From contig AP026137.1 in the NCBI GenBank assembly GCA_030295235.1, forward strand, positions 806,001-870,000: a stretch of 64,000 bases of DNA, written 5' to 3'. Each line of letters opens with the position of its first letter. The stretch's first letter is position 1. This DNA is from Fistulifera solaris (taxonomy: Eukaryota). Under the pieces are notes generated by a model. It did no database searches, was not told the origin of the DNA, and saw only the letters and a program-made list of their open reading frames with translations. A program made the translations under genes and the position numbers. Below, one piece after another: positions 594-53,831 of this stretch.

Positions 594-3500
594 CTACTTG
601 GGATATCGAACATTCTCCTTGCACAGTCGAGCCAAGTACGGGGCGCGCGGAAGCAAACATTCTCCTTGCACTTCCGCTCCAGAAAGGGACGGGTGCGGAG
701 GCAAGGACCAAGTGTTTTCTTTCGCTTTCGCATCGCATCCACCTCCATTGAATCCACATCGCAAAAGTGTGGAATGGTATCCACGTCCATTCCACTCGTG
801 ATATCAAATCTCGGCATGGTATCCATCTCCGTTTCACTCAAAAAAATCCAATGTCGACATTGCAGAATCCTCCTCTACAAAAGGATCAAGACACAATCGA
901 TGACGCTTCGAACTCCTCACCGGAGAAGAGGAAGAAACAACATCAGCTTCCAATGCGCGCTTACGCGTCTCACGACCAAGATCCACCACCACGACGACAG
1001 GATCAAGACACAATCGACGACGCTTCCAATTCGTCACCGGAGAAGAGGTAGAATCAACATCATCTTTCAAAGCGCGCTTACGCGTCCCGCGAACAAGATC
1101 CACCACCACGACGACAGGATCAAGACACAATCGACGACGCTTCCAATTCGTCACCGGAGAAGAGGTAGAATCAACATCATCTTCCAAAGCGCGCTTACGC
1201 GTCCCACAGCCAAGATCCACCACCACGACGACAGGATCAAGACACAATCGACGTCGCTTCGAACTCCTCACCGGAGAAGAGGAAGAAACAACATCATCTT
1301 CCAATGCGCGCTTACGCATCCCGCGAACAAGATCCACCACCACGACGACAGGATCACGACACGATCGACGACGCTTCGAACTCCTCACCGGAGAAGAGGA
1401 AGAAATAACATCATCTCCCAAAGCGCTTACGCCGTCCCACAGCCAAGATCCACCACCACGACGACAGGATCAAGACACAATCGACGTCGCTTCGAACTCC
1501 TCACCGGAGAAGAGGAAGAAACAACATCATCTCCCAAAGCGCGCTTACGATTCCAACGAGACGGATCATCCAAACCAGCCATCTCATCTATCTCCATAGG
1601 AACCGGATCATCCAAACCAGCCATCTCATCTATCTCCATAGGAACCGGATCATCCAAACCAGCCATCTCATCGATCTCCATAGGAACCTCCATAGGATCA
1701 TCCAAGCTAGCCATCTCATCGATCTCCATAAAAACCGGATCATCCAAACCAGCCATCTCATCGATCTCCATAGGAACCGGATCATCCAAACCAGCCATCT
1801 CATCGATCTCCATAGGAACCTTCATAGGATCATTCAAACCAGCCATCTCATCGATCTCCATAGGAACCGGATCATACAAACCAACCATCTCATCGATCTC
1901 CATAGGAACCTCCATAGGATCATACAAACCAGCCATCTCATCGATCTCCATAGGAACCTCCATAGGATCATACAAACCAGCCATCTCATCGATCTCCATA
2001 GGAACCTCCATAGGATCATTCAAACCAGCCATCTCATCGATCTCCATAGGAACCTCGATAGGATCATACAAACCAGCCATCTCATCGATCTCCATAGGAA
2101 CCGGATCATCCAAACCAGCCATCTCATCGATCTCCATAGGAACCTCCATAGGATCATTCAAACCAGCCGCCTCATCGATCTCCATAGGAACCTCCATAGG
2201 ATCATACAAACCAGCCATCTCATCGATCTCCATAGGAACCTCCATAGGATCATACAAACCAGCCATCTCATCGATCTCCATAGGAACCTCCATAGGATCA
2301 TACAAACCAGCCATCTCATCGATCTCCATCAAAATCAGATCATCCAAACCAGCCATCTCATCGATCTCCATAAAAATCAGATCATCCAAACCAGCCATCT
2401 CATCGATCTCCATAGGAACCTCGATAGGATCATACAAACCAGCCATCTCATCGATCTCCATAGGAACCGGATCATACAAACCAGCCATCTCATCGATCTC
2501 CATAGGAACCGGATCATCCAAACCAGCCATCTCATCGATCTCCATAGGAACAGGATCATACAAACCAGCCATCTCATCGATCTCCATAGGAACAGGATCA
2601 TACAAACCAGCCATCTCATCGATCTCCATGGGAGCAGGATCACGAGCAAGATCCGCAAAGTACTCGCGAACACTTCGTTGCCCGATCCGTTCGATGAAAC
2701 GACACGACACCAATTTATCATCGGGCGCAAAATGAACTCGACGACGATCACCACTTTTCTTTACAATACGCTCCGCAAACAATTTCGTTTTCAATGATTC
2801 TAGAGCCGTCGGCTCAATCGACTCCACAACCGGTATCGTCTTCACTGGAGCAGAAGGCAATGTCCCGACTGCAACGGAATCCTCCACAGCCGGTTGCTGA
2901 ACACAGCAACGACGATGAGCAAGACCCGAAAAGTATTCGCGAACACTTTGTTGCCCGATCCGTTCGATGAAACGACACGACACCAAATTTTCATCGGGGG
3001 CAAAACGAACGCGAAGAAGACCGCTTTCCTTCAACAAACATCGGAAATGTGCGTTCCAAACAGCACGCTTGTTTGAGAATTCACACAAAAGACGAAGGGG
3101 ATCGAGACCAATAGAGCTGCATGTCTCGAAATTCCCCAATCGCACGATATGAATTGCTTTTGTTGCTGCGGACGACCCACGAAGCTCAGCCAACAACAAA
3201 AACAAGCCAACTGCGGAAGCACCGATCCATCTGGCACCTCCACAAGCAGTAACAACTCCAATCACCATAAGAAAGAGAATGAAGACGAAAGACACGCAAA
3301 AATGACACGGTGCTTTCGCTTCAAATCAAATTGCTTCTCCGTAGCGTCAAGTACCGGAGCTACAGGACGAAACATCGTGAGAGGTAGAGTCTCCAAACGA
3401 ACTGGAAACTCCGTGTTCTTTGCCAAGAGAACATCGTCACGATGCGTACAACCGTTTGCGTGAAAAGAACGAAGCAAACAGCCGCACGACGACCAAACGA

Positions 3501-3848
3501 CAGCCACATGGTCGAGCAAAAACTCTTCAGCGCCAGAAGAGCGATTTCTGCGACGGTCCGAGCGCAGAAACGCATCAACACAAGCCCCGCAACGCAAGCA
3601 GGCACAAGGATGATGCAAAGAACGGAAAAGAGCGACAGAACAAGCAAACAGACGCAGGAGAAAACACACACCGACTCCGAAAGCGACTGAACACTTGCGA
3701 TGCCGCGCAGCATACTTCCAATCTCCAGAGCAAACTGAATCTCCGCCGGAGCGAAGAAACAGCCAATCCGGCCGACAGGAGACGAAAGGATGCAAGTAAA
3801 GAGCACGAAGCTCGCGAAAGTTTTGTTTGTTTTGATAAAGTTTATCAT
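594..3848 (-). CDS. Orphan repeat protein copy 1: hydrophobic N-terminus, 2x RVxF module, 24 MEID repeats, ~6 39-aa basic repeats; broken by frameshifts as assembled
   Basis: ORF pieces 3360-3848 (ATG MINFIKTNK...), 1427-3295, 834-1421 and a C-terminus ending ...CKENVRYPK* at 594. The link between the N-terminal piece and the main ORF (TAG at 3360-3362) is unresolved. Confidence 0.6.
883..1548 (-). repeat. 117-bp coding minisatellite (39 aa, RKRALEDDVVSSSSPVRSSKRRRLCLDPVVVVVDLGCGT)
   Basis: ggatca anchors at 883, 1000, 1117, 1234, 1351 and 1467. Equivalent arrays at ~8524-9540 (~8.7 units), ~16571-17237, ~23641-24424 (~6.7 units) and ~31094-31760. Confidence 0.95.
1563..2640 (-). repeat. 42/48-bp coding minisatellite (MEIDEMAGLDDPVP / MEIDEMAGLYDPMEVP)
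   Basis: Period 42 (ggatcatcc at 1563 and 1605) mixed with 48-bp variants. Units counted from the ORF translations: 24, 26, 12, 17 and 14 in copies 1-5. Confidence 0.97.
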
Positions 3849-3913
3849 TTTGTTGCAAGACCTTGTTTCAAAAGAAAAAAGTGGGCAACCGAGAAGGCGA
3901 GGGAGGCCAGCTG

Positions 3914-3970
3914 CGGACCGCGGTACATGTTGTACGGACCGCGGTACATGTTGTACGGACCGCGGTACAT
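3914..3970. repeat. 21-bp tandem repeat (cggaccgcggtacatgttgta) in the divergent intergenic region
   Basis: Starts at 3914, 3935 and 3956. Three copies in units 1, 4 and 5; one copy in units 2 and 3. Confidence 0.9.
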
Positions 3971-4383
3971 TTTCTACGTAACCTTCACGGCTACTATTTG
4001 AAAGAGAAAGTATATTCGATGCGACATGATACTCTATTCGGACAATGTACGCTGCATACATCCAGTATATCAACGTACGGGTACCGTACCGGATGGATGG
4101 ACTTTGCTGTGTCCTCGTTTTTCCGTGCTTTTTTAAAAAGTCTTGTTGTAATCATTACCAACCAGGTCTTGCTTATTGCTTCGCTATGGAAAGAAAGATT
4201 GTCGATCAACTGCCACTCGACAATAATGATAGCAAACAAACGAATTCTTTTCTCGTCACTTCGACGCGGAGCAAAGGATCGACGGAGATTAGGAATCACC
4301 TTTTTTCGAGATAGATCCCATGTGAGCTCGCAACTCGCCACATCATCGCTTGCAGCACGAAATCCTTCCTTTTCGTTAGTTCA

Positions 4384-5790
4384 ATGCAGTCAAACGTAGG
4401 CTCGATATCAAACAAGTACACTTCCTTTCGGATCCGTAATCTACGGTACAAGAGTGATCAATCTGATCCTGCAAGGAAAACAACAAGAAATGAAGAAACA
4501 CCCGTTATAGCACCGGGATCGAAGCCTCACTCCGCCATCGCGGCTCAATTGGAAGAGCGACTCAAACGAGTTGTTAGCGATCTAAATTTGAGCGATCAGC
4601 TTTCGGTAATAGGCATTGCTGTCCTTACGGCTCTCATTTTGACGGCTCCTTATGTTATTCGGCAAATGAAGAAATCAGGTCGAGAAGATTATTCGGTCAC
4701 GTCGGAAGATCCGGTGGATGATTTGACCATGGTTGTGAGACGTGCGTGGGACGAGGAAGACGAAGATGAGTCATCTCGAAAAAGCGCTGTTGAAATAATG
4801 CTTAAGGATATTTTGAAATCGCAAGGACTGCAGTAAGCAGCACAGGATTTTCTCATTCGCATTTTGGAAGCGCCCGAGTTCCAGGCGGCGCTGCAACGTT
4901 TGGTAAAAAACGATTTGGGCGGACTTAATTTCGGATAAGGAAACTGTGGCACAAGTGATTCGACTGCTGCAAATAGCCATTCAAGATCCGGCTGTGAAGA
5001 AAGCGGCTCAACTTCTTGTGCTTCAAATTGTTCAAGATCAGCAAGTCAAAGAGTCGCTCATTGAGCTCATCAAAAGTTTGGGTGCCGAAAAGGCTGTTCT
5101 GGGTGCTACTCAGACTCTTCTAACAGAGGCCGCGCATAATGCTTTGAATGATGCGGAAATATTAGACCATTCGATGGAATTCGCGACGGACGTGGTGGGA
5201 GACGATGTCGTCCAACGAACGGCCGGTGAGGCTTTGCGCAAATCAGTGGGACACGCTTTTAGACCTGCGTCCACGGTTTTGTTGACAGCGGCAGGTATTG
5301 GTTTGATGGTATTCGGTGTGGCTACAATTGGCTATGCCAGATCGTCCGACCAAGAAATAGTTTTGTTGGAAACAGCTGCTCGATCACTACAAAGCAATGC
5401 CTCTTATGGGATTATGAGGATCGTCACTTGGCCTTTTCGTGCAGTGCAGGGTATCTGGAGCGATACAGAAATTTTATTGTGGAAACCTGTATGTTGGCTT
5501 CAAGATAGTGCCGCTATAATTTCGGAGCAAGCATTATCATTGATTTCAGACTCGTTCGACTACGTGTCGAGTCTACCAAGTCGGGGAAGTGTGGCGGTGA
5601 TGCAAGCCTTGTCGCAAGCTGGACAGGCCACTGCTGATGCCGTTGTTACTTTTGTTGATCGATTGTTTCAAAAGATCGCCTCCTTGGCGTGTTTATACAA
5701 AGATGAATTGGTCGCAGCCATCACTCAGTACTTAAGGGCAGCTGTTGATTTCGTAGTGGAGTTCGCTCAATCCAATGGCCAGGTCGCGAT
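4384..5790 (+). pseudogene. Truncated nonsense copy 1 of the 515-aa helical membrane protein gene
   Basis: Matches 34146-35551 but has CAA>TAA at 4834-4836, and the amplification junction at 5790 removes the 3' end. Confidence 0.9.
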
Positions 5791-5993
5791 TCTATGGATG
5801 TTATTTAAGTGCTCAATTGATGCTATAGCGATGTTTTGGTTGCAGTCGCCAGGTACGCCTGTTTTCTTGTTAGCTTCAGCTGGTACATTTTGCTACGTCA
5901 CTCTGCACGCCCACTTCTTTTATCTCCATCGCCGTGCATCGTACTCGATGCCATTGCAATTGCAAGTTCTGCATTCCTTTTATCGTTATCGTA

Positions 5994-7148
5994 ATGCTCT
6001 TTTTCCTTCTTCTAGCAGAAAAGGGTGACAACGCACGGTCGCACGGTGGACACAGTGTGTGGTCAGTGTCGGATTTCTTTCCTGTTGATGCCGATGCCGA
6101 TGCCCTATCGACGCATCATCAAAGACTATCCGTGTCTGCCAAACAAAGGTTACATACTCGCCAATCTCATCTTTTTTTCGGCGGCGGTGGCGGCGGTAGG
6201 ATCGGATAAAGTCGATGTGTCATCATCAGTCGAGGAAAGCAGATGGGACCGCGTCCGAAGGGAAGGAGGCATGTTCTCCATACACACAAAACATACGGTG
6301 TTTTTGAATCCGTTTGGACTCTGGTACGGTGCGGTGGCTGTCACTCTCGGTATCCCGTGGTATATTGCCATGACAATCTGTCAAATCTTTTACAAGTTGA
6401 CCGGAGAACGTTTCGATTGACTACGATGCATTCCGATTTTTTATTACACAAATTTTTATTACACAAATTTGGGGGACATTGTTGTTCCGATTGACACATT
6501 GTTATCCCAAAATGGAAGGTTTGGATATTTTACGAAAATTCTATAAAGAGTGAGTATGTTGGCAATAACCGTGCTGGACATTCGCCTTCGCGGTTCGCAG
6601 GAGGAGTCTCATAATGTTTTTTCGACGTCACAGGGGTCGATGTGCCATGCTTGCGGCGAATCACAGCTCATGGATGGACACTTTCTATTTGGGTGCGACC
6701 GTCGGCTGGAGAAATTTTAGCCTCATTAGCAAAAATGAAGTGCAGCGCGTCCCTATTCTCGGTAAGGCCATCGAGGTTGGCGGCAATATTCTACCTGGTA
6801 GTAGATCGACAAGATCGCAAGTCGCAGCTCATGACGTTGAAAAAGGGAATTCAATACCAGTACTTACAAGACTTTGTACATTTGTGAAGGTATCCCGAGG
6901 GAACACGTGCGCATACAAGAAGAGTCGTGCCCTTTAAAAACGGAGCTTTCAAAATGGCGCACAAGGCTGGTGCACCGGTCATCATCCCCATTTCCATCGT
7001 AGGCGCCGATAAATCCATGGCAATTCACTGGATGTTCCCTTTCTGACCCGGTCACCCCCTATCACGCGTGGTCGTTCATAAACCGATTGAATCCGAAGGA
7101 AGGACGGAAGAGGAGCTGGCGGAGGCTGTTTCGCACTGCTATGAATAG
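5994..7148 (+). pseudogene. 1-acyl-sn-glycerol-3-phosphate acyltransferase (LPAAT/PlsC family, plastid type) pseudogene, copy 1
   Basis: Motifs NHSSWMD (NHxxxxD), PEGTR and PFKNGAFKMAHKAGAPVIIPISI. GT-AG intron 6550-6633. Transit-peptide-like N-terminus. In-frame TGA at 6418-6420 and ~7044, plus frameshifts and small duplications (FITQI x2, QYQY). Start position approximate. Confidence 0.85.
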
Positions 7149-7720: not shown

Positions 7721-8235
7721 ACATCATTCGTTACGAGTTACGAGGGGGATCGCTGCAATCTATTTACTCCTATTACTCAGTCTTAGCAACCAGCAAACTA
7801 AATAGAATTTTTTTTGAAAACATCCAATCTATTATTGCTAAAAATGGATAGAACGCAGATCCCAGAATCAAAAGGAGCACAACTCTTGCACGAGGAGCTA
7901 GAAGAAAGAACACTGTCTCACTGCACCAAGCCACCGAGCTACGAGTGATTCAACACATGAATCACACCCGCAGACGGCACATCTGGCGTCTTAACGAGAG
8001 ACATGGGGCCCTACCTTCATCGCAGCGCGAGAGTTGGCTTGCCACGCCTGGCCAATTGATTTGGGTTTAAAAGAGAGAAAACAAAATAGATTTGGACTTG
8101 AGAGTGAACGTACCTTGTCACGGTCCCTGCCAGATACTCTGCCGTCGAGTTCAAAGCAAACCGGGATTCCAGCACCTCCTCGTGACATTCTCTCATCCTC
8201 ACCTTTTCTGTCCCTAAGATCAATAAATTATTACA

Positions 8236-11200
8236 CTACTTGGGATATCGAACATTCTCCTTGCACAGTCGAGCCAAGTACGGGCGCGCGGAAGCAAACA
8301 TTCTCCTTGCACTTCCGCTCCAGAAAGGGACGGGTGCGGAGGCAAGGACCAAGTGTTTTCTTTCGCTTTCGCATCGCATCCACCTCCATTGAATCCACAT
8401 CGCAAAAGTGTGGAATGGTATCCACGTCCATTCCACTCGTGATATCAAATCTCGGCATGGTATCCATCTCCGTTTCACTCAAAAAAATCCAATGTCGACA
8501 TTGCAGAATCCTCCTCTACAAAAGGATCAAGACACAATCGATGACGCTTCGAACTCCTCACCGGAGAAGAGGAAGAAACAACATCAGCTTCCAATGCGCG
8601 CTTACGCGTCTCACGACCAAGATCCACCACCACGGCGACAGGATCAAGACACAATCGACGACGCTTCCAATTCGTCACCGGAGAAGAGGTAGAATCAACA
8701 TCATCTTTCAAAGCGCGCTTACGCGTCCCGCGAACAAGATCCACCACCACAACGACAGGATCAAGACACAATCGACGACGCTTCGAACTCCTCACCGGAG
8801 AAGAGGAAGAATCAACATCATCTTCCAAAGCGCGCTTACGCGTCCCACAGCCAAGATCCACCACCACGACGACAGGATCAAGACACAATCGACGTCGCTT
8901 CGAACTCCTCACCGGAGAAGAGGAAGAAACAACATCAGCTTCCAATGCGCGCTTACGCGTCTCACGACCAAGATCCACCACCACGACGACAGGATCAAGA
9001 CACAATCGACGACGCTTCCAATTCGTCACCGGAGAAGAGGTAGAATCAACATCATCTTTCAAAGCGCGCTTACGCGTCCCGCGAACAAGATCCACCACCA
9101 CAACGACAGGATCACGACACAATCGACGACGCTTCGAACTCCTCACCGGAGAAGAGGAAGAATCAACATCATCTTCCAAAGCGCGCTTACGCGTCCCACA
9201 GCCAAGATCCACCACCACGACGACAGGATCAAGACACAATCGACGTCGCTTCGAACTCCTCACCGGAGAAGAGGTAGAATCAACATCATCTTCCAAAGCG
9301 CGCTTACGCGTCCCACAGCCAAGATACACCACCACAACGACAGGATCACGACACAATCGACGACGCTTCGAACTCCTCACCGGAGAAGAGGAAGAAACAA
9401 CATCATCTTCCAATGCGCGCTTACGCGGCCCGCGAACAAGATCCACCACCACGACGACAGGATCACGACACAAAGGACGACGCTTCGAACTCCTCACCGG
9501 AGAAGAGGAAGAAACAACATCATCTTCCAATGCGCTTACGATTCCAACGAGACGGATCATCCAAACCAGCCATCTCATCTATCTCCATAGGAACCGGATC
9601 ATCCAAACCAGCCATCTCATCGATCTCCATAAAAACCGGATCATCCAAACCAGCCATCTCATCTATCTCCATAGGAACCGGATCATCCAAACCAGCCATC
9701 TCATCGATCTCCATAAAAACCGGATCATCCAAACCAGCCATCTCATCGATCTCCATAGGAACCTCCATAGGATCATCCAAGCTAGCCATCTCATCGATCT
9801 CCATAAAAACCGGATCATCCAAACCAGCCATCTCATCGATCTCCATAGGAACCGGATCATCCAAACCAGCCATCTCATCGATCTCCATAGGAACCTCCAT
9901 AGGATCATTCAAACCAGCCATCTCATCGATCTCCATAGGAACCGGATCATACAAACCAGCCATCTCATCGATCTCCATAGGAACCTCCATAGGATCATAC
10001 AAACCAGCCATCTCATCGATCTCCATAGGAACCTCCATAGGATCATACAAACCAGCCATCTCATCGATCTCCATAGGAACCTCCATAGGATCATACAAAC
10101 CAGCCATCTCATCGATCTCCATAGGAACCTCGATAGGATCATACAAACCAGCCATCTCATCGATCTCCATAGGAACCGGATCATCCAAACCAGCCATCTC
10201 ATCGATCTCCATAGGAACCTCCATAGGATCATTCAAACCAGCCGCCTCATCGATCTCCATAGGAACCTCCATAGGATCATACAAACCAGCCATCTCATCG
10301 ATCTCCATAGGAACCTCCATAGGATCATACAAACCAGCCATCTCATCGATCTCCATAGGAACCTCCATAGGATCATACAAACCAGCCATCTCATCGATCT
10401 CCATCAAAATCAGATCATCCAAACCAGCCATCTCATCGATCTCCATAAAAATCAGATCATCCAAACCAGCCATCTCATCGATCTCCATAGGAACCTCGAT
10501 AGGATCATACAAACCAGCCATCTCATCGATCTCCATAGGAACCGGATCATACAAACCAGCCATCTCATCGATCTCCATAGGAACCGGATCATCCAAACCA
10601 GCCATCTCATCGATCTCCATAGGAACAGGATCATACAAACCAGCCATCTCATCGATCTCCATAGGAACAGGATCATCCAAACCAGCCATCTCATCGATCT
10701 CCATAGGAGCAGGATCACGAGCAAGATCCGCAAAGTACTCGCGAACACTTCGTTGCCCGATCCGTTCGATGAAACGACACGACACCAATTTATCATCGGG
10801 CGCAAAATGAACTCGACGACGATCACCACTTTTCTTTACAATACGCTCCGCAAACAATTTCGTTTTCAATGATTCTAGAGCCGTCGGCTCAATCGACTCC
10901 ACAACCGGTATCGTCTTCACTGGAGCAGAAGGCAATGTCCCGACTGCAACGGAATCCTCCACAGCCGGTTGCTGAACACAGCAACGACGATGAGCAAGAC
11001 CCGAAAAGTATTCGCGAACACTTTGTTGCCCGATCCGTTCGATGAAACGACACGACACCAAATTTTCATCGGGGGCAAAACGAACGCGAAGAAGACCGCT
11101 TTCCTTCAACAAACATCGGAAATGTGCGTTCCAAACAGCACGCTTGTTTGAGAATTCACACAAAAGACGAAGGGGATCGAGACCAATAGAGCTGCATGTC

Positions 11201-11923
11201 TCGAAATTCCCCAATCGCACGATATGAATTGCTTTTGTTGCTGCGGACGACCCACGAAGCTCAGCCAACAACAAAAACAAGCCAACTGCGGAAGCACCGA
11301 TCCATCTGGCACCTCCACAAGCAGTAACAACTCCAATCACCATAAGAAAGAGAATGAAGACGAAAGACACGCAAAAATGACACGGTGCTTTCGCTTCAAA
11401 TCAAATTGCTTCTCCGTAGCGTCAAGTACCGGAGCTACAGGACGAAACATCGTGAGAGGTAGAGTCTCCAAACGAACTGGAAACTCCGTGTTCTTTGCCA
11501 AGAGAACATCGTCACGATGCGTACAACCGTTTGCGTGAAAAGAACGAAGCAAACAGCCGCACGACGACCAAACGACAGCCACATGGTCGAGCAAAAACTC
11601 TTCAGCGCCAGAAGAGCGATTTCTGCGACGGTCCGAGCGCAGAAACGCATCAACACAAGCCCCGCAACGCAAGCAGGCACAAGGATGATGCAAAGAACGG
11701 AAAAGAGCGACAGAACAAGCAAACAGACGCAGGAGAAAACACACACCGACTCCGAAAGCGACTGAACACTTGCGATGCCGCGCAGCATACTTCCAATCTC
11801 CAGAGCAAACTGAATCTCCGCCGGAGCGAAGAAACAGCCAATCCGGCCGACAGGAGACGAAAGGATGCAAGTAAAGAGCACGAAGCTCGCGAAAGTTTTG
11901 TTTGTTTTGATAAAGTTTATCAT
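8236..11923 (-). CDS. Orphan repeat protein copy 2 (26 MEID repeats, ~9 39-aa repeats); frameshifted as assembled
   Basis: ORFs 11435-11923, 9520-11370, 8475-9578 and a C-terminus to 8236. Confidence 0.6.
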
Positions 11924-16281: not shown

Positions 16282-18990
16282 CTACTTGGGATATCGAACA
16301 TTCTCCTTGCACAGTCGAGCCAAGTACGGGCGCGCGCGGAAGCAAACATTCTCCTTGCACTTCCGCTCCAGAAAGGGACGGGTGCGGAGGCAAGGACCAA
16401 GTGTTTTCTTTCGCTTTCGCATCGCATCCACCTCCATTGAATCCACATCGCAAAAGTGTGGAATGGTATCCACGTCCATTCCACTCGTGATATCAAATCT
16501 CGGCATGGTATCCATCTCCGTTTCACTCAAAAAATCCAATGTCGACATTGCAGAATCCTCCTCTACAAAAAGATCAAGACACAATCGATGACGCTTCGAA
16601 CTCCTCACCGGAGAAGAGGAAGAAACAACATCATCTCCCAAAGCGCGCTTACGCGTCCCACAGCCAAGATCCACCACCACGACGACAGGATCAAGACACA
16701 ATCGACGTCGCTTCGAACTCCTCACCGGAGAAGAGGAAGAAACAACATCAGCTTCCAATGCGCGCTTACGCGGCCCGCGAACAAGATCCACCACCACGAC
16801 GACAGGATCACGACACAATCGACGACGCTTCGAACTCCTCACCGGAGAAGAGGAAGAAACAACATCATCTTCCAATGCGCGCTTACGCGTCCCGCGAACA
16901 AGATCCACCACCACGACGACAGGATCACGACACAATCGACGACGCTTCGAACTCCTCACCTGAGAAGAGGAAGAAACAACATCATCTCCCAAAGCGCGCT
17001 TACGCGTCCCACAGCCAAGATCCACCACCACGACGACAGGATCAAGACACAATCGACGACGCTTCGAACTCCTCACCGGAGAAGAGGAAGAAACAACATC
17101 ATCTCCCAATGCGCGCTTACGCGTCCCACAGCCAAGATCCACCACCACGACGACAGGATCAAGACACAATCGACGACGCTCGAACTCCTCAACGGAGAAG
17201 AGGAAGAAACAACATCATCTCCCAAAGCGCGCTTACGATTCCAACGAGACGGATCATTCAAACCAGCCATCTCATCGATCTCCATAGGAACCTCCATAGG
17301 ATCATACAAACCAGCCCTCTCATCGATCTCCATAGGAACCGGATCATACAAGCCAGCCATCTCATCGATCTCCATAGGAACCTCAATAGGATCATACAAA
17401 CCAGCCATCTCATCGATCTCCATAAAAACCAGATCATCCAAACCAGCCATCTCATCGATCTCCATAGGAACCTCCATAGGATCATACAAACCAGCCATCT
17501 CATCGATCTCCATAGGAACCTCCATAGGATCATACAAACCAGCCATCTCATCGATCTCCATAAAAACCAGATCATCCAAACCAGCCATCTCATCGATCTC
17601 CATAAAAACCGGATCATCCAAACCAGCCATCTCATCGATCTCCATAGGAACAGGATCATTAAAACCAGCCATCTCATCGATCTCCATAGGAACCGGATCA
17701 TCCAAACCAGCCATCTCATCGATCTCCATAAAAACCGGATCATCCAAACCAGCCATCTCATCGATCTCCATAGGAGCAGGATCACGAGCAAGATCCGCAA
17801 AGTACTCGCGAACACTTCGTTGCCCGATCCGTTCGATGAAACGACACGACACCAATTTATCATCGGGCGCAAAATGAACTCGACGACGATCATCACTTTT
17901 CTTTACAATACGCTCCGCAAACAATTTCGTTTTCAATGATTCTAGAGCCGTCGGCTCAATCGACTCCACAACCGGTATCGTCTTCACTGGAGCAGAAGGC
18001 ACTGTCCCGACTACAACGGAATCCTCCACAGCCGGTTGCTGAACACAGCAACGACGATGAGCAAGACCCGAAAAGTATTCACGAACACTTTGTTGCCCGA
18101 TCCGTTCGATGAAACGACACGACACCAAATTTTCATCGGGGGCAAAACGAACGCGAAGAAGACCGCTTTCCTTCAACAAACATCGGAAATGTGCGTTCCA
18201 AACAGCACGCTTGTTTGAGAATTCACACAAAAGACGAATGGGATCGAGACCAATAGAGCTGCATGTCTCGGAATTCCCCAATCGCACGATATGAATTGCT
18301 TTTGTTGCTGCGGACGACCCACGAAGCTCAGCCAACAACAAAAACAAGCCAACTGCGGAAGCACCGATCCATCTGGCACCTCCACAAGCACCAACAGCTC
18401 CAATCACCATAAGAAAGAGAATGAAGACGAAAGACACGCAAAAGTGACACGGTGCTTTCGCTTCAAATCAAATTGCTTCCCCGTAGCGTCAAGTACCGGA
18501 GCTACAGGACGAAACATCGTGAGACGTAGAGTCTCCAAACGAACTGGAAACTCCGTGTTCTTTGCCAAGAGAACATCGTCACGATGCGTACAACCGTTTG
18601 CGTGAAAAGAACGAAGCAAACAGCCGCACGACGACCAAACGACAGCCACATGGTCGAGCAAAAACTCTTCAGCGCCAGAAGAGCGATTTCTGCGACGGTC
18701 CGAGCGCAGAAACGCATCAACACAAGCCCCGCAACGCAAGCAGGCACAAGGATGATGCAAAGAACGGAAAAGAGCGACAGAACAAGCAAACAGACGCAGG
18801 AGAAAACACACACCGACTCCGAAAGCGACTGAACACTTGCGATGCCGCGCAGCATACTTCCAATCTCCAGAGCAAACTGAATCTCCGCCGGAGCGAAGAA
18901 ACAGCCAATCCGGCCGACAGGAGACGAAAGGATGCAAGTAAAGAGCACGAAGCTCGCGAAAGTTTTGTTTGTTTTGATAAAGTTTATCAT
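16282..18990 (-). CDS. Orphan repeat protein copy 3 (12 MEID repeats, ~6 39-aa repeats)
   Basis: ORFs 18502-18990, 17073-18437 and 16282-17169. The last shows the 39-aa repeats running in frame into the C-terminus ...MEVDAMRKRKK...RARPYLARLCKENVRYPK*. Confidence 0.6.
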
Positions 18991-22262: not shown

Positions 22263-23349
22263 CGGATTGGGCGATTACCAAAAGCCACTTGACAAGTGAA
22301 TCATTGTCCTTGAAAGTACCAGGTACCAGGTACCAGGTATGATCGGGCAAAAGTGAAATGAGGGATAGTTTCCGGGACTGAACAGTTGAGTCGTTGGAGA
22401 AAAGTAGACAACCGGATTTTTGAAGTCGAAATTCGAGACATGGATTGCAATCGCTACTGCAAGCTGCAAGTAGTCGACTACTAATGAAAATGAAGTTAAC
22501 CTACCAAACTGTACCCAAATGAACGGAGGTTAGTCTAGAGGTATAGCAGTCTGCGCCATTTTTCAATGATTCATGACTGATGACTGAAACGCAGTCGTGA
22601 AAAAGGTAGCGCACACCCTTATGGGTCTCTATATAGAATAGATGAAAGACAATGATTTCGCAAGGAATTTCGACGTAAGCAATCGAGTTGTGCATTGCAA
22701 ATGCTGCAAGGATCATTGTATTAGCACGTCATAAAATACAAACATAGCTTACCAACCCAGCAGAACAAACGGAGCTTAGGTAGCAGTGGAACTCGGACCA
22801 ATCCTGATTCATGACTGAAAAGCAGTCGTGGTTAACATCATTCGTTACGAGTTACGAGGGGGATCGCTGCAATCTATTTACTCCTATTACTCAGTCTTAG
22901 CAACCAGCAAACTAAATAGAATTCTTTTTGAAAACATCCAATCTATTATTGCTAAAAATAGATAGAACGCAGATCCCAGAATCAAAAGGAGCACAACTCT
23001 TGCACGAGGAGCTAGAAGAAAGAACACTGTCTCACTGCACCAAGCCACCGAGCTACGAGTGATTCAACACATGAATCACACCCGCAGACGGCACATCTGA
23101 CGTCTTAACGAGAGACATGGGGCCCTACCTTCATCGCAGCGCGAGAGTTGGCTTGCCACGCCTGGCCAATTGATTTGGGTTTAAAAGAGAGAAAACAAAA
23201 TAGATTTGGACTTGAGAGTGAACGTACCTTGTCACGGTCCCTGCCAGATACTCTGCCGTCGAGTTCAAAGCAAACCGGGATTCCAGCACCTCCTCGTGAC
23301 ATTCTCTCATCCTCACCTTTTCTGTCCCTTAGATCAATAAATTATTACA

Positions 23350-26300
23350 CTACTTGGGATATCGAACATTCTCCTTGCACAGTCGAGCCAGAGTACGGGC
23401 GCGCGCGGAAGCAAACATTCTCCTTGCACTTCCGCTCCAGAAAGGGACGGGTGCGGAGGCAAGGACCAAGTGTTTTCTTTCGCTTTCGCATCGCATCCAC
23501 CTCCATTGAATCCACATCGCAAAAGTGTGGAATGGTATCCACGTCCATTCCACTCGTGATATCCAATCTCGGCATGGTATCCATCTCCGTTTCACTCAAA
23601 AAATCCAATGTCGACATTGCAGAATCCTCCTCTACAAAAAGATCAAGACACAATCGATGACGCTTCGAACTCCTCACCGGAGAAGAGGAAGAAACAACAT
23701 CAGCTTCCAATGCGCGCTTACGCGTCTCACGACCAAGATCCACCACCACGACGACAGGATCAAGACACAATCGACGACGCTTCCAATTCGTCACCGGAGA
23801 AGAGGTAGAATCAACATCATCTTTCAAAGCGCGCTTACGCGTCCCGCGAACAAGATCCACCACCACAACGACAGGATCAAGACACAATCGACGACGCTTC
23901 GAACTCCTCACCGGAGAAGAGGAAGAAACAACATCATCTTCCAAAGCGCGCTTACGCGTCCCACAGCCAAGATCCACCACCACGACGACAGGATCACGAC
24001 ACAATCGACGACGCTTCCAATTCGTCACCGGAGAAGAGGTAGAATCAACATCATCTTCCAATGCGCGCTTACGCGGCCCGCGAACAAGATCCAACACCAC
24101 GACGACAGGATCACGACACAATCGACGACGCTCGAACTCCTCACCGGAGAAGAGGAAGAAACAACATCATCTTCCAATGCGCGCTTACGCCGTCCCACAG
24201 CCAAGATCCACCACCACGACGACAGGATCACGACACGATCGACGACGCTTCGAACTCCTCACCGGAGAAGAGGAAGAAACAATATCATCTCCCAAAGCGC
24301 GCTTACGCGTCCCACAGCCAAGATCCACCACCACGACGACAGGATCAAGACACAATCGACGTCGCTTCGAACTCCTCACCGGAGAAGAGGAAGAAACAAC
24401 ATCATCTCCCAAAGCGCGCTTACGATTCCAACGAGACGGATCATCCAAACCAGCCATCTCATCTATCTCCATAGGAACCGGATCATTCAAACCAGCCATC
24501 TCATCGATCTCCATAAAAACCGGATCATCCAAACCAGCCATCTCATCGATCTCCATAGGAACCGGATCATACGAACCAGCCATCTCATCGATCTCCATAG
24601 GAACCTCCATAGGATCATACAAAAAAGCCATCTCATCGATCTCCATAGGAATAGGATCATACAAACCAGCCATCTCATCGATCTCCATAGGAACCTCCAT
24701 AGGATCATACAAACCAGCCATCTCATCGATCTCCATAGGAACCTCCATAGGATCATACAAACCAGCCGCCTCATCGATCTCCATAGGAACCTCTATAGGA
24801 TCATACAAACCAGCCATCTCATCGATCTCCATAAAAACCAGATCATCCAAACCAGCCATCTCATCGATCTCCATAGGAACCTCCATAGGATCATACAAAC
24901 CACCCATCTCATCGATATCCATATGAACCTCGATAGGATCATACAAACCAGCCATCTCATCGATCTCCATAGGAACCGGATCATCCAAACCAGGCATCTC
25001 ATCGATCTCTATAGGAACAGGATCATCCAAACCAGCCATCTCATCGATCTCCATAGGAACAGGATCATTAAAACCAGCCATCTCATCGATCTCCATAGGA
25101 ACCGGATCATCCAAACCAGGCATCTCATCGATCTCTATAGGAACAGGATCATCCAAACCAGCCATCTCATCGATCTCCATAGGAGCAGGATCACGAGCAA
25201 GATCCGCAAAGTACTCGCGAACACTTCGTTGCCCGATCCGTTCGATGAAACGACACGACACCAATTTATCATCGGGCGCAAAATGAACTCGACGACGATC
25301 ATCACTTTTCTTTACAATACGCTCCGCAAACAATTTCGTTTTCAATGATTCTAGAGCCGTCGGCTCAATCGACTCCACAACCGGTATCGTCTTCACTGGA
25401 GCAGAAGGCAATGTCCCGACTACAACGGAATCCTCCACAGCCGGTTGCTGAACACAGCAACGACGATGAGCAAGACCCGAAAAGTATTCGCGAACACTTT
25501 GTTGCCCGATCCGTTCGATGAAACGACACGACACCAAATTTTCATCGGGGGCAAAACGAACGCGAAGAAGACCGCTTTCCTTCAACAAACATCGGAAATG
25601 TGCGTTCCAAACAGCACGCTTGTTTGAGAATTCACACAAAAGACGAATGGGATCGAGACCAATAGAGCTGCATGTCTCGGAATTCCCCAATCGCACGATA
25701 TGAATTGCTTTTGTTGCTGCGGACGACCCACGAAGCTCAGCCAACAACAAAAACAAGCCAACTGCGGAAGCACCGATCCATCTGGCACCTCCACAAGCAC
25801 CAACAGCTCCAATCACCATAAGAAAGAGAATGAAGACGAAAGACACGCAAAAGTGACACGGTGCTTTCGCTTCAAATCAAATTGCTTCCCCGTAGCGTCA
25901 AGTACCGGAGCTACAGGACGAAACATCGTGAGACGTAGAGTCTCCAAACGAACTGGAAACTCCGTGTTCTTTGCCAAGAGAACATCGTCACGATGCGTAC
26001 AACCGTTTGCGTGAAAAGAACGAAGCAAACAGCCGCACGACGACCAAACGACAGCCACATGGTCGAGCAAAAACTCTTCAGCGCCAGAAGAGCGATTTCT
26101 GCGACGGTCCGAGCGCAGAAACGCATCAACACAAGCCCCGCAACGCAAGCAGGCACAAGGATGATGCAAAGAACGGAAAAGAGCGACAGAACAAGCAAAC
26201 AGACGCAGGAGAAAACACACACCGACTCCGAAAGCGACTGAACACTTGCGATGCCGCGCAGCATACTTCCAATCTCCAGAGCAAACTGAATCTCCGCCGG

Positions 26301-26399
26301 AGCGAAGAAACAGCCAATCCGGCCGACAGGAGACGAAAGGATGCAAGTAAAGAGCACGAAGCTCGCGAAAGTTTTGTTTGTTTTGATAAAGTTTATCAT
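23350..26399 (-). CDS. Orphan repeat protein copy 4 (17 MEID-type repeats, ~7 39-aa repeats)
   Basis: ORFs 25911-26399, 24185-25846 and 23345-24121. This is the most diverged MEID array (IEIDE and MDIDE variants). Confidence 0.6.
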
Positions 26400-28558: not shown

Positions 28559-29724
28559 ATGCTCTTTTTCCTTCTTCTAGCAGAAAAGGGTGACACGCAC
28601 GGTCTCACGGTGGACACAGTGTGTGGTCAGTGTCGGATTTCTTTCCTGTTGATGCTGATGCCGATGCCGATGCCGATGCCCTATCGACGCATCATCAAAG
28701 ACTATCCGTGTCTGCCAAACAAAGGTTACATACTCGCCAATCTCATCTTTTTTCGGCGGCGGTGGCGGCGGTAGGATCGGATAAAGTCGATGTGTCATCA
28801 TCAGTCGAGGAAAGCAGATGGGACCGCGTCCGAAGGGAAGGAGGCATGTTCTCCATACACACAAAACATACGGTGTTTTTGAATCCGTTTGGACTCTGGT
28901 ACGGTGCGGTGGCTGTCACTCTCGGTATCCCGTGGTATATTGCCATGACAATCTGTCAAATTTTTTACAAGTTGACCGGAGAACGTTTCGATTGACTACG
29001 ATGCATTCCGATTTTTTTATTACACAAATTTTTATTACACAAATTTGGGGGACATTGTTGTTCCGATTGACACATTGTTATCGCAAAATGGAAGGTTTGG
29101 ATATTTTGCGAAAATTCTATAAAGAGCGAGTATGTTGGCAATAACCGTGCTGGACATTCGCCTTCGCAGTTCGCAGGAGGAGTCTCATAATGTTTTTTCG
29201 ACGTCACAGGGGTCGATGTGCCATGCTTGCGGCGAATCACAGCTCATGGATGGACACTTTCTATTTGGGTGCGACCGTCGGCTGGAGAAATTTTAGCCTC
29301 ATTAGCAAAAATGAAGTGCAGCGCGTCCCTATTCTCGGTAAGGCCATCGAGGTTGGCGGCAATATTCTACCTGGTAGTAGATCGACAAGATCGCAAGTCG
29401 CAGCTCATGACGTTGAAAAAGGGAATTCAATACCAGTACTTACAAGACTTTGTACATTTGTGAAGGTATCCCGAGGGAACACGTGCGCATACAAGAAGAG
29501 TCGTGCCCTTTAAAAACGGAGCTTTCAAAATGGCGCACAAGGCTGGTGCACCGGTCATCATCCCCATTTCCATCGTAGGCGCCGATAAATCCATGGCAAT
29601 TCACTGGATGTTCCCTTTCCGACCCGGTCACCCCCTATCACGCGTGGTCGTTCATAAACCGATTGAATCCGAAGGAAGGACGGAAGAGGAGCTGGCGGAG
29701 GCTGTTTCGCAGTGCTATGAATAG
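28559..29724 (+). pseudogene. LPAAT/PlsC pseudogene copy 4
   Basis: Same motifs. TGA after GERFD retained; intron donor changed GT>GC at 29126-29127. Confidence 0.85.
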
Positions 29725-30804: not shown

Positions 30805-33600
30805 CTACTTGGGATATCGAACATTCTCCTTGCACAGTCGAGCCAAGTACGGGCGCGCGCGGAAGCAAACATTCTCCTTGCACTTCCGCTCCAGAAAGGG
30901 ACGGGTGCGGAGGCAAGGACCAAGTGTTTTCTTTCGCTTTCGCATCGCATCCACCTCCATTGAATCCACATCGCAAAAGTGTGGAATGGTATCCACGTCC
31001 ATTCCACTCGTGATATCCAATCTCGGCATGGTATCCATCTCCGTTTCACTCAAAAAATCCAATGTCGACATTGCAGAATCCTCCTCTACAAAAGATCAAG
31101 ACACAATCGATGACGCTTCGAACTCCTCACCGGAGAAGAGGAAGAAACAACATCATCTCCCAAAGCGCGCTTACGCGTCCCACAGCCAAGATCCACCACC
31201 ACGACGACAGGATCAAGACACAATCGACGTCGCTTCGAACTCCTCACCGGAGAAGAGGTAGAATCAACATCATCTCCCAATGCGCGCTTACGCGGCCCGC
31301 GAACAAGATCCACCACCACGACGACAGGATCACGACACAATCGACGACGCTTCGAACTCCTCACCGGAGAAGAGGAAGAAACAACATCATCTTCCAATGC
31401 GCGCTTACGCGTCCCGCGAACAAGATCCACCACCACGACGACAGGATCACGACACAATCGACGACGCTTCAACCTCCTCACCTGAGAAGAGGAAGAAACA
31501 ACATCATCTCCCAAAGCGCGCTTACGCGTCCCACAGCCAAGATCCACCACCACGACGACAGGATCAAGACACAATCGACGACGCTTCGAACTCCTCACCG
31601 GAGAAGAGGAAGAAACAACATCATCTCCCAATGCGCGCTTACACGTCCCACAGCCAAGATCCACCACCACGACGACAGGATCAAGACACAATCGACGACG
31701 CTTCGAACTCCTCAACGGAGAAGAGGAAGAAACAACATCATCTCCCAAAGCGCGCTTACGATTCCAACGAGACGGATCATCCAAACCAGCCATCTCATCT
31801 ATCTCCATAGGAACCGGATCATCCAAACCAGCCATCTCATCAATCTCCATAGGAACCGGATCATTCAAACCAGCCATCTCATCGATCTCCATAGGAACCT
31901 CCATAGGATCATACAAACCAGCCCTCTCATCGATCTCCATAGGAACCGGATCATACAAGCCAGCCATCTCATCGATCTCCATAGGAACCTCAATAGGATC
32001 ATACAAACCAGCCATCTCATCGATCTCCATAAAAACCAGATCATCCAAACCAGCCATCTCATCGATCTCCATAGGAACCTCCATAGGATCATACAAACCA
32101 GCCATCTCATCGATCTCCATAGGAACCTCCATAGGATCATACAAACCAGCCATCTCATCGATCTCCATAAAAACCAGATCATCCAAACCAGCCATCTCAT
32201 CGATCTCCATAAAAACCGGATCATCCAAACCAGCCATCTCATCGATCTCCATAGGAACAGGATCATTAAAACCAGCCATCTCATCGATCTCCATAGGAAC
32301 CGGATCATCCAAACCAGCCATCTCATCGATCTCCATAAAAACCGGATCATCCAAACCAGCCATCTCATCGATCTCCATAGGAGCAGGATCACGAGCAAGA
32401 TCCGCAAAGTACTCGCGAACACTTCGTTGCCCGATCCGTTCGATGAAACGACACGACACCAATTTATCATCGGGCGCAAAATGAACTCGACGACGATCAT
32501 CACTTTTCTTTACAATACGCTCCGCAAACAATTTCGTTTTCAATGATTCTAGAGCCGTCGGCTCAATCGACTCCACAACCGGTATCGTCTTCACTGGAGC
32601 AGAAGGCACTGTCCCGACTACAACGGAATCCTCCACAGCCGGTTGCTGAACACAGCAACGACGATGAGCAAGACCCGAAAAGTATTCACGAACACTTTGT
32701 TGCCCGATCCGTTCGATGAAACGACACGACACCAAATTTTCATCGGGGGCAAAACGAACGCGAAGAAGACCGCTTTCCTTCAACAAACATCGGAAATGTG
32801 CGTTCCAAACAGCACGCTTGTTTGAGAATTCACACAAAAGACGAATGGGATCGAGACCAATAGAGCTGCATGTCTCGGAATTCCCCAATCGCACGATATG
32901 AATTGCTTTTGTTGCTGCGGACGACCCACGAAGCTCAGCCAACAACAAAAACAAGCCAACTGCGGAAGCACCGATCCATCTGGCACCTCCACAAGCACCA
33001 ACAGCTCCAATCACCATAAGAAAGAGAATGAAGACGAAAGACACGCAAAAAGTGACACGGTGCTTTCGCTTCAAATCAAATTAAGCTTCCCCGTAGCGTC
33101 AAGTACCGGAGCTACAGGACGAAACATCGTGAGACGTAGAGTCTCCAAACGAACTGGAAACTCCGTGTTCTTTGCCAAGAGAACATCGTCACGATGCGTA
33201 CAACCGTTTGCGTGAAAAGAACGAAGCAAACAGCCGCACGACGACCAAACGACAGCCACATGGTCGAGCAAAAACTCTTCAGCGCCAGAAGAGCGATTTC
33301 TGCGACGGTCCGAGCGCAGAAACGCATCAACACAAGCCCCGCAACGCAAGCAGGCACAAGGATGATGCAAAGAACGGAAAAGAGCGACAGAACAAGCAAA
33401 CAGACGCAGGAGAAAACACACACCGACTCCGAAAGCGACTGAACACTTGCGATGCCGCGCAGCATACTTCCAATCTCCAGAGCAAACTGAATCTCCGCCG
33501 GAGCGAAGAAACAGCCAATCCGGCCGACAGGAGACGAAAGGATGCAAGTAAAGAGCACGAAGCTCGCGAAAGTTTTGTTTGTTTTGATAAAGTTTATCAT
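30805..33600 (-). CDS. Orphan repeat protein copy 5 (14 MEID repeats, ~6 39-aa repeats)
   Basis: The 662-aa ORF 31086-33074 joins the hydrophobic segment, both RVxF modules, the MEID array and the 39-aa array in one frame. The C-terminus (30805-31071) follows a 1-bp shift in an A run. Confidence 0.65.
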
Positions 33601-41737: not shown

Positions 41738-42136
41738 TTACTATTGTTTCATTTGTCGAGATGCCTCTCACCGCCTTTGACATCACAACAAAGCAATGTT
41801 GATTTCATTACCATCCTTTGTTCGTCCCTTTATACTAAATACGCAAAAGGCCGCGCTATTGAAATACGGAGTAGAGATATACGGAGTAATAGATGACTTG
41901 TTTCTGTCAGAATTTCTGTCTACCTCAAAGCTTTAGAATTTTCTTTCGACTAAAACATTTCACACAGAATTTCCGTTTAAGAAAAAACTGTATTTATTTC
42001 CTTGACGACGTGACGACGATGGTACTGTATACAAAGTAATAAAGCGATTGAAAGGATTAACGATTGCTTTTGCTTGCATTTTTCTTACTCCGTACCATCA
42101 ATAAAGACGTCAAAACTTAGTGAAACATACTATTAA

Positions 42137-45100: not shown

Positions 45101-45883
45101 CTGCTCTGCTGAAACATTGGTGATTGTCAGCATGTTGTCTGTACCCAGTGTCTTTTTTCGGCCGAAAGATCGAGAAGAGGAAAGTGATGCTGCACGGGAG
45201 AAATTTTTGTACCCGAATCCGATCATCTTACGCTGTTGAATGTGTATATGAGAGCCAAACAATACAAGTTTGATGCCGCATGGTGCACGCGTCATTTCAT
45301 CCACTCGAAAGGGTTGCGAAAAGCACGCGAGGTCCATGCCCAACTTCTCGATTTGATGAAGCAACAAAAACTTGAGCCTCGATCATGCGGCAATTCGTGG
45401 GATGCCATTCGTAAGGCTATCTGTTCCGCCTACTTTTACAATTCTTCCAAAATCAAGGGAATCGGTGATTATGTCAACATGCTGACAGGTATTCCAGCAG
45501 CACTCCATCCAAGTTCATCCTTGTTTGGATTGGGTTTTACACCGGACTACGTCTGTTACCATGAGTTGATCTCGACAACGAAAGAGTACATGTCCTGCGT
45601 AACCGCAGTAGATGGTGAATGGCTAGCAGAAGTTGGACCGATGTTTTTCTCCGTCAAAGAATCGTACGATAGTATGCTGGCACGTCGTCAAAAACAAAGA
45701 CAAAATCAATCTTCTATGGAGGAAGAACTGCGGAAGAAGCAAAAAGAAGAGGAAGCGAAAGAAGAAGAAATGCGTGCCAAACTGTCGTCTCTTCGTCGCA
45801 GCCAGACCGTTGCTACACCAGGTCGCTCTGCGAATGCAACACCGCGATTCATTCCCAAGAAACGAGGGCGACTCGGTCTCTAG
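42137..45883 (+). CDS. PRP16: Pre-mRNA splicing DEAH-box helicase PRP16/DHX38
   Basis: [30 protein letters not shown] (joined by intron 44080-44147), SAT and QRQGRAGR, plus PRP16-type N-terminal [12 protein letters not shown] and [10 protein letters not shown]. 1-bp shifts in T runs near 44340 and 45205. Confidence 0.93.
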
Positions 45884-53650: not shown

Positions 53651-53831
53651 CACACATGCCCCCATGCCCGCATGCCCTCATTTCCTAAAGATACACAGAT
53701 TTTTTCCGTGCATCACGAATTTTCGCTGAATGAAGAAGAGAAAGCTTGAACAGGAGAAGTAAATGATTATGAAACAATCAGCAAGTTTATACTCAAGGCG
53801 AGCAAATTGTTAAAACATCCGTCCAATCATC

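Follow-up and report, generated by a model that had tools for sequence, protein, structure and literature searches.

The stretch of DNA analysed here comprises 64,000 nucleotides of the diatom Fistulifera solaris (NCBI GenBank assembly GCA_030295235.1, contig AP026137.1, positions 806,001 to 870,000 of the forward strand) and is referred to as the window in the following. Near its start lies a minus-strand open reading frame (ORF), 1427-3295, which a preliminary description of this DNA presented as an orphan protein with a KNL1-like layout. Sequence comparison indicates that this ORF is the central part of a longer minus-strand gene, extending approximately from 594 to 3848, and that this gene is one of five tandem copies. 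The reading which we prefer, with a probability of about 0.5, is that the gene encodes a membrane-tethered multivalent scaffold for protein phosphatase 1 (PP1), that the breaks in its reading frame are artefacts and that the protein is not an analogue of KNL1.

Extent and Organization of the Gene

The ORF was verified and comprises 622 amino acids (aa) from a GTG or 613 aa from the ATG at 3268. It carries CLLKESGLLRVRFAPDENLVSCRFIERIG (RVRF) and RIVKKSGDRRRVHFAPDDKLVSCRFIERIG (RVHF), each within a module matching the RVxF motif for the docking of PP1, and the second module passes directly, with no gap, into an array of 24 units reading PMEIDEMAGL (termed MEID units in the following). In this respect the preliminary description was accurate, since two RVxF modules are indeed followed by repeats, of which 12-26 are present across the five gene copies. 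The designation as an orphan was wrong: 17 homologous proteins were found, and these possess additional N- and C-terminal parts. At their N-terminus the homologues possess about 195 additional residues, which begin with MINxIKTNKTFASFVLFT and include several hydrophobic segments; their C-terminal sequence is K.FGPC.R[TS]RP[YF]L.R.CK.NV.Y.K. When the F. solaris homologues P0003, P0004 and P0007 were used in tblastn searches, they aligned to all five copies from the start MINFIK to the tail, distributed over at least three frames. The N-terminal domain, which is encoded in a frame other than that of the ORF, shares 88-90% identity with residues 1-128 of these three proteins in all five copies. 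Four elements, namely the transmembrane (TM) domain, the sequence AELRRSSAAT, the RVxF module and the tail C.R.RP.L.R.CK.N, occur in every copy, but their frames differ. The parts of copy 1 and the extents of the other copies are compiled in Table 1.

On the C-terminal side the gene is continued past the stop at 1427 by a basic 117-bp repeat spanning 882-1549, which the preliminary description did not mention. The ORF stops at 1427-1429 because the first basic unit in copy 1 measures 116 nucleotides (nt), not 117. In copy 5 the basic array is in frame with the MEID array (ORF 31086-33017), and in copy 3 the basic array and the tail form one ORF (16285-17214) ending with CKENVRYPK. The same ending is found in copy 5, where the tail is intact (ORF 30805-31095). 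The conserved tail motif of copy 1 is located at approximately 594-733, and this tail is interrupted at a T7 run and at a CG run.

Table 1. Parts of the repeat gene in copy 1 and extents of the four further copies in the window.
Feature	Positions	Strand	Basis
N-terminal hydrophobic domain, MINFIKTNKTFASF...AAVCFVLF, signal-peptide-like segment and 2-3 TM segments	3465..3848	minus	tblastn, hydropathy
Basic linker, HANGCTHRDD...MFRPVAPVLDATEKQFDLKRKHRVIF, third frame	3298..3462	minus	tblastn, 82% identity to P0003 residues 130-184
TM hairpin, VSFVFILFLMVIGVV...AVGLFLLLAEL, then AELRGSSAATK	3158..3295	minus	alignment; two helices at the homologous place in the P0005 model
RVxF module 1, CLLKESGLLRVRFAPDENLVSCRFIERIGQQSVREYF, RVRF at 3002-3013	2930..3040	minus	homologous to the single P0003 module
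RVxF module 2, RIVKKSGDRRRVHFAPDDKLVSCRFIERIGQRSVREYF, RVHF at 2729-2740, internal duplicate of module 1	2657..2770	minus	sequence comparison; single module in P0003
Acidic array, 24 units of 14 or 16 aa, MEIDEMAGL[DYN]DP(ME)VP	1563..2635	minus	repeat finding and unit splitting
Basic array, ~5.7 units of 39 aa (117 bp), DDVVSSSSPVRSSKRRRLCLDPVVVVVDLGCGTRKRALE	882..1562	minus	repeat finding and translation
Acidic tail, FVEEDSAMSTLDF...MDVD...MEVDAM, and C-terminal motif RKRKKTLGPCLRTRPFLERKCKENV-CFRARPYLARLCKENVRYPK	594..881	minus	five tails aligned; same tail in homologues
Gene copy 2, 26 MEID units, 8.7 units of 117 bp	8234..11923	minus	ORFs, repeats, tblastn
Gene copy 3, 12 MEID units	16285..18990	minus	ORFs, repeats, tblastn
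Gene copy 4, 17 MEID units	23348..26399	minus	ORFs, repeats, tblastn
Gene copy 5, 14 MEID units, longest uninterrupted ORF 31086-33080 (linker end to basic array)	30805..33600	minus	ORFs, tblastn

The Homologue Family

The 17 homologues were obtained by searches with the non-repetitive N-terminal 207-215 aa, supplemented by a profile search that contributed a few of them. The closest of them is FisN_5Hu265 (P0003), with E ~1e-49 and 51-59% identity. An exhaustive HMMER search of 1.84 billion representatives returned only seven matches at E ≤ 1e-3. Named members derive only from F. solaris, the others being environmental records, one of which is labelled as a bacterial metagenome-assembled genome, and the family entries are annotated only as “hypothetical protein”.

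From the N- to the C-terminus, family members have a segment resembling a signal peptide together with TM segments, followed by a basic loop, a TM hairpin with AELRRSSAAT, an arginine-rich RVxF module within predicted disorder, a variable acidic middle and a conserved Cys/Arg tail, GPCxRTRPYLxRKCKENVRY.K. By hydropathy, four to five hydrophobic segments are present in family members and in the upstream frames of the window. An alignment of 13 sequences revealed E28, S33, A34 and A35 to be invariant and L29, R30, S32 and T36 to be at least 90% conserved. The sequence AELR[RG]SSAAT after the TM hairpin (3158-3190) is the most conserved stretch of the whole family. Its RRSS resembles a basophilic kinase site, and one may speculate that it is a substrate beside the RVxF dock.

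AlphaFold2 models were available for P0005 and for the N-terminal 207 aa of the window protein, with a mean pLDDT (predicted local distance difference test) of 43 and 42 from alignments of 15-16 sequences. Both models comprise the TM hairpin, and that of P0005 also has a small confident helical domain at residues 210-280, which is missing in the window protein; most relatives have this small helical domain where the window protein has its array. Pfam scans of the window proteins, both modules, the tail and 11 homologues gave no meaningful match. A PDB sequence search with the family profile returned nothing below E = 2, a Foldseek comparison of the P0005 model with the PDB returned no match at E ≤ 0.001, and the Atlas structure rows all had TM scores below 0.4.

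The N-terminal 128 aa are 88-90% identical among paralogues which are otherwise ~50% identical, and this suggests either gene conversion or strong constraint. P0014 (FisN_2HuN01, 1265 aa) represents two family members fused head to tail, so that family genes occur in tandem elsewhere in the F. solaris genome as well.

RVxF Modules and Putative PP1 Docking

Within the 13-sequence alignment R86 shows no variation, and the conservation of V87 and F89 reaches at least 90%. Of the 19 modules, which are not all independent, as P0009 and the second half of P0014 are near-identical, 16 retain the RVxF motif at the homologous position. The module is a genuine conserved element, and in this the preliminary description, which read it as a PP1 docking signature, is supported. 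Of the two motifs which it expected homologues to share, V-x-F was retained to the extent just given, whereas M-E-I-D was not conserved. The shared context of the motif is formed by basic residues, R-V-[RHCQ]-F-[A/other]-..-L.S[FYC]..[IV] and then M-S-.-E-E. Passages of PMC4794898 give an extended consensus, [KR][KR][ACHKMNQRSTV]V[CHKNQRST][FW], which is more specific than the short form [RK]x0-1[VI]{P}[FW]. Module 2 (RRRVHF) and most relatives (RRRVRF) fit the extended consensus, and module 1 (LLRVRF) fits the short one only. A strict five-residue RVxF pattern from the literature arose in 20 of 500 shuffles of the window protein.

In the AlphaFold2 models of P0005 and the window N-terminus, both of which are poor overall, the module is coil with pLDDT values of 27-46. 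All five gene copies encode the same amino acids in both module cores. In the diverged metagenomic contig X2 the module-1 core differs by four synonymous and no non-synonymous substitutions, compared with one and five, respectively, just downstream; these are small numbers and partly reflect conversion toward module 2. Because the RVxF motif is conserved at a homologous site and disorder is predicted around it, docking of PP1 via the module appears plausible and may be taken as a fair hypothesis. Among the Pfam-named clusters of the ESM Atlas, PP1c_bdg is the nearest (score 0.84, carried by 16% of its members), which serves as a lead only; no Pfam match to PPP1R15/PP1c_bdg (PF10488) was obtained at E ≤ 1 or E ≤ 10. 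A full-text search found no paper joining diatom, protein phosphatase 1 and RVxF.

Acidic and Basic Arrays

Tandem Repeats Finder reported 23.8 copies with a period of 42 at 1563-2633. After splitting at the unit start, gene copies 1-5 contain 24, 26, 12, 17 and 14 MEID units, respectively, i.e., 93 in total, although the copies are otherwise 94-99% identical. MEIDE forms the start of 90 of the 93 units, and the distance between unit starts is 42 or 48 nt in all 88 cases. MEID units possess neither Ser nor Lys, and the acidic array of copy 5 has a net charge of -66 over 205 aa. The basic array of the same copy has a net charge of +27 over 228 aa. Its 39-aa unit joins KRRRL/RKRAL with DPVVVVVDL and is present in ~6-9 copies per gene. 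KRRRL/RKRAL may be similar to nuclear localisation signals and DPVVVVVDL to SUMO-interaction motifs. Other conceivable readers, by likeness to known patterns, are those of the kinesin-light-chain W-acidic motif (M-D-W-[DE], P0012 and P0015) and of the TRAF6 motif PxExx[acidic], and Met-rich copper sites were likewise considered.

On the plus strand a 689-aa ORF spans the same repeats, and a long open frame alone is thus no proof of coding. Evidence for coding arrays comes from the unit lengths of 42, 48 and 117 nt, which are all multiples of three, from conserved coding parts flanking the arrays on both sides, and from homologous proteins, since single acidic motifs are found inside P0012, P0003 and P0014 and a single basic unit inside P0012 and P0003. 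In P0003 a single RVxF module is accompanied by a single basic unit (KRKRDLEDAFVNASLVRNLKRRKLCQDPVPVV) and by one or two acidic motifs (VNMELDE..DDPVDMGVDAM). In P0012, PVDMDWDP precedes NRKRRLEED..SSKRQRTLDSPVMV; this arrangement is colinear with the point where the two arrays of the window gene meet, with a local alignment that is not significant alone (E = 32). The first half of P0014 contains VPMDWSP, VPMEWSP and VPMELD, and an array of.EVDAM[AP]S[LF][DN]D units, which is independent of the MEID array, is present in P0009, P0014 and P0018. Homologues without MEID as such show MELD, MGVD, MDWD/E, M[DE]WS or xEVDAM, and nine of the 17 have no M[ED][ILVMW][TSDE] motif at all. Both arrays look like recent amplifications of motifs which the family carries singly or a few times. 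For the MEID array this follows from the single M[DE][WLV][DSE] motifs of relatives and from the separate EVDAM-type array of one F. solaris lineage.

Frame Breaks and Integrity of the Gene

The frame breaks are indels of 1-2 nt. Introns were considered as their cause and rejected, as homologous residues are contiguous across the breaks with an offset of 1-2 nt. Downstream of the N-terminal region the breaks mostly differ among copies and are located at T runs and at the CG run of the tail; the basic arrays contain three units of 116 nt and one double spacing of 235 nt. For every segment beyond the first two N-terminal breaks, one or more copies provide an intact version. No frame-breaking indel was detected in the 93 MEID units or in the N-terminal regions (5 x 633 nt). 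At 8283, contigs of three public runs carry the GC which is missing in copy 2 and present in copies 3 and 5. In copy 1 the neighbouring gene is broken by a base at 4905 which the contigs of all four runs lack, and in three of the runs a T is inserted after 4369; the differences at 4905 and 4369 suggest consensus indel errors in the window. Contigs of runs X3 and X4, which are only guessed to be RNA, touch 2634-2779, 3719-3870 and 8100-8522 within the parts of the gene, and no conclusion on expression is based on them. The acyltransferase of the units is split in the same way as the repeat gene. For a preprint on the matching locus nanopore reads were used (bioRxiv 10.1101/2021.11.10.468027). 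Taken together, we consider the frame breaks to be consensus errors of a long-read assembly rather than real mutations at about two-to-one odds.

A number of observations weigh against an intact gene for a PP1 scaffold. None of the five copies is open from the MINFIK start to the tail. All five copies share the same break between the TM domain and the linker, which lies in the T run 3463-3466. The discontinuity between the linker and the RVxF part (~3298) is likewise kept modulo 3 in all of them; in copies 1-4 it lies at a T run, and copy 5 has a longer run (T5) there as well as a TT insertion upstream. Among the indels listed from short-read contigs, no correction was found at 3463-3466 or ~3298. 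Real breaks would leave the RVxF and array part downstream of a stop codon, in which case the copies would probably be dead. The N-terminal 633 nt of the five copies have nine variable sites, eight of them non-synonymous and one synonymous, and the MEID units show 6 synonymous versus 29 non-synonymous variant types with no codon-position bias; selection tests on units and gene copies are uninformative, given the small numbers and the non-independence of the units. No signature of purifying selection is seen outside the conserved cores. With regard to PP1, the short RVxF consensus is found in ~25% of all proteins as stated in a passage of PMC4794898, the motif is lost in three of the 19 modules (P0012 and both modules of P0015), and sequence searches of Pfam and the PDB matched no PP1 regulator. 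The call of disorder may partly reflect the shallow alignments of 15-16 sequences. Finally, a conserved pair of Cys residues in the tail would suit a lumenal disulfide, which is the wrong side of the membrane for PP1.

The foregoing observations on the open frame, the two shared breaks, the variable sites and the unit variants would all be accounted for by five decaying pseudogenes, in which the breaks would be true mutations, translation would not reach the RVxF and array part and the arrays would be neutral minisatellites carried by a 7-8 kb segmental duplication; moreover, the repeats leave frames open on both strands anyway. We regard this as unlikely. The ~7 kb of N-terminal regions and MEID arrays contain no frame-breaking indel, while the breaks cluster at T and CG runs. 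Furthermore, the short-read contigs over the tail break of copy 2 carry the intact version, the neighbouring genes of the unit show similar 1-nt breaks, and the segments after the first two N-terminal breaks are each intact in some copy.

Predicted Membrane Topology and Proposed Function

A K/R-rich loop precedes the TM hairpin and an RR-rich stretch follows it. By the positive-inside rule these flanks would place the tail in the cytosol or nucleoplasm. On the reading that we prefer, the protein would be anchored in an endomembrane, with the tail facing the cytosol or nucleoplasm. The RVxF motif in this tail would dock the PP1 catalytic subunit, and the arrays would offer the acidic and the basic motif in many copies to putative readers. 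A more far-reaching version, which we hold to be quite improbable, assumes a group of diatom-specific endomembrane PP1 regulators, possibly of the nuclear envelope, with disordered tails that evolve by explosive motif amplification. With two RVxF motifs, up to 26 acidic sites, up to nine basic units and five genes, the protein could then serve to enrich PP1 and the motif readers at one membrane, or to titrate them. In its boldest form the reader would be Bub3-like and the protein would tune mitotic checkpoint signalling.

Precursors of the silaffin and silacidin type in diatoms are typically cleaved at RXL and contain acidic or Ser/Lys-rich repeats. A secretory or lumenal repeat-protein precursor of this kind (e.g., for cell wall or biosilica), cut at RXL and with an incidental RVxF match, would agree with the signal-peptide-like N-terminus followed by CFFAP, with the two R-x-L sites (KRRRL, RKRAL) and the Ser run in each 39-aa unit and with the Cys pair of the tail. 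It is nevertheless very unlikely, as several more TM segments follow the signal-like one, the K/R-rich flanks on both sides of the hairpin predict a cytosolic tail, the MEID units are devoid of Ser and Lys, and the conservation of RVxF is left unexplained. That the arrays are non-coding intergenic repeats and the ORF a repeat artefact, as might be thought since the preprint on the matching locus describes the repeats that separate the LPAAT copies as intergenic and as lacking homology, and since long plus-strand ORFs also cross the arrays, is scarcely tenable in view of array flanks which match annotated proteins on both sides at E 1e-49 and better, and of the unit lengths and homologous units described above.

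The preliminary description proposed a scaffold with a KNL1-like layout, or else a decoy, with PP1 docked by RVxF and with MEID serving as a constitutively phosphomimetic MELT read by Bub3. This was not supported, and we judge it to be extremely improbable. SILK ([GS]IL[RK]) was not found in 18 sequences (the window protein and its 17 homologues); CLLK and RIVK are situated only five to six residues before RVxF. At motif position 4, Thr or Ser was found in 0 of 93 units, all having Asp. Spc7, Knl1_RWD and MELT Pfam matches were absent at E ≤ 1 for copies 1 and 5 and at E ≤ 10 for the modules and the tail. The C-terminus is the family's own Cys/Arg tail, GPCLRTRPFLERKCKENV..., and not a coiled coil or RWD. 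The caveat raised together with the proposal, namely that the coiled-coil/RWD region of KNL1 is missing and the N-terminal segments are hydrophobic, proved to be correct in the absence of a Pfam match and the presence of TM segments. Moreover, the small helical domain replaces the array in most relatives, the leading M is not conserved in the related EVDAM arrays, and the array appears to be a recent local amplification. In favour of the analogy are the same order of RVxF and a fast-evolving array, the M[DE]WS-P of some relatives, which could be phosphorylated, and the resemblance of PMEIDE to the repeat consensus EP[MI]EEE of drosophilid KNL1, given in a passage of PMC4558858. As this consensus has no Thr, the missing Thr alone does not exclude the analogy.

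If the gene is intact and RVxF binds PP1, a family of PP1-targeting subunits from diatoms would be at hand, and with it a natural case in which the dosage of a short linear motif is changed by array amplification. The “intergenic repeats of unknown function” of the published tandem LPAAT locus would be re-read as coding sequence. In addition, frame errors touching all three genes of the unit are flagged in this region of the assembly. The findings have no bearing on kinetochore evolution unless localisation says otherwise.

Locus Setting and Further Features of the Window

GC-skew periodicity and self-BLAST delimited five tandem units of 7.1-8.0 kb, which are 94-99% identical outside the arrays. 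The units start at approximately 1, 7643, 15689, 22757 and 30212, and the last one ends at ~35551. Each is composed of the repeat gene on the minus strand and a divergently oriented plus-strand ORF of 515 aa with unassigned function, which is intact in copy 5 (34146-35693) and split in copy 1 (4384-6028). Units 1-4 additionally contain a plus-strand acyltransferase (PF01553) as two overlapping ORFs (e.g., 29145-29513 and 29464-29724), and unit 5 ends before it. The tandem array adjoins an ABC1/aarF kinase gene. This arrangement fits a published locus on chromosome 9_h of F. solaris, for which the relevant passage of bioRxiv 10.1101/2021.11.10.468027 describes five tandem short LPAAT genes beside an aarF kinase gene and highly repeated “intergenic” elements with no homology and unclear function; F. 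solaris is reported there to be transformable. In copy 1 a 21-bp unit occurs in 3.1 copies (CGGACCGCGGTACATGTTGTA, 3914-3978) within the ~540 bp that separate the MINFIK start at 3848 from the divergent gene, which starts at 4384.

Further repeats were found outside the units. A 235-bp tandem repeat at 39994-41737 (7.5 copies, 97% identity) coincides with the most AT-rich stretch of the window (GC 0.38, 40001-42000). Two related arrays, 49565-50036 (68-bp units x 6.9) and 53467-53655 (33/67-bp units), share the words TTCTGGGAACGTG and CCACACCCCCA, and the SRP54 gene and another gene lie downstream of them. A regulatory role is conceivable, as is a small mobile element. At 42137-45239 a gene for a DEAH-type helicase (Helicase_C, HA2) is split into the ORFs 42137-44083 and 44370-45239, which could be due to an intron or to a further frame error.

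Comparison with Known Systems

The published LPAAT array and the window have in common five tandem units by an aarF/ABC1 kinase gene with repeated elements in between, and the short split acyltransferase ORFs of the window agree with it. The preprint's passage on the array calls the repeats intergenic, whereas they are read here as coding arrays of a family gene.

The nearest relatives are FisN_5Hu265 and the first half of FisN_2HuN01, whose N-terminal TM domain is 88% identical to that of the window and whose TM hairpin and RVxF region are 49-59% identical. FisN_5Hu265 also shares the type of Cys/Arg tail and single copies of both repeat units with the window gene. The two relatives differ in possessing a single RVxF module, where the window gene has two, and one to three acidic motifs in place of the 12-26 units; FisN_5Hu265 has one basic unit instead of 6-9. 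Unlike the window copies, both are annotated as one open frame.

With KNL1/Spc105 the window protein shares an RVxF motif N-terminal to a fast-evolving array of short acidic-hydrophobic units. EP[MI]EEE of drosophilid KNL1, as cited in a passage of PMC4558858, comes close to VPMEIDE of the window, and the analogy is confined to this level of short motifs. The window protein differs in having no SILK, no repeat Thr, no Spc7/RWD/MELT match and no sequence match to KNL1, and its family is TM-anchored with a tail of its own.

PPP1R15/GADD34 and the glycogen-targeting subunits PPP1R3 are set apart from the window family by the lack of a Pfam or PDB sequence match, by the restriction of the family to few diatom-like sequences and by its as yet putative docking of PP1. 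Their likeness lies in a basic RVxF motif, in predicted disorder in the window family, which is followed a few residues later by hydrophobic L.S[FC]..I, and GADD34 combines membrane association, acidic repeats and RVxF in one protein.

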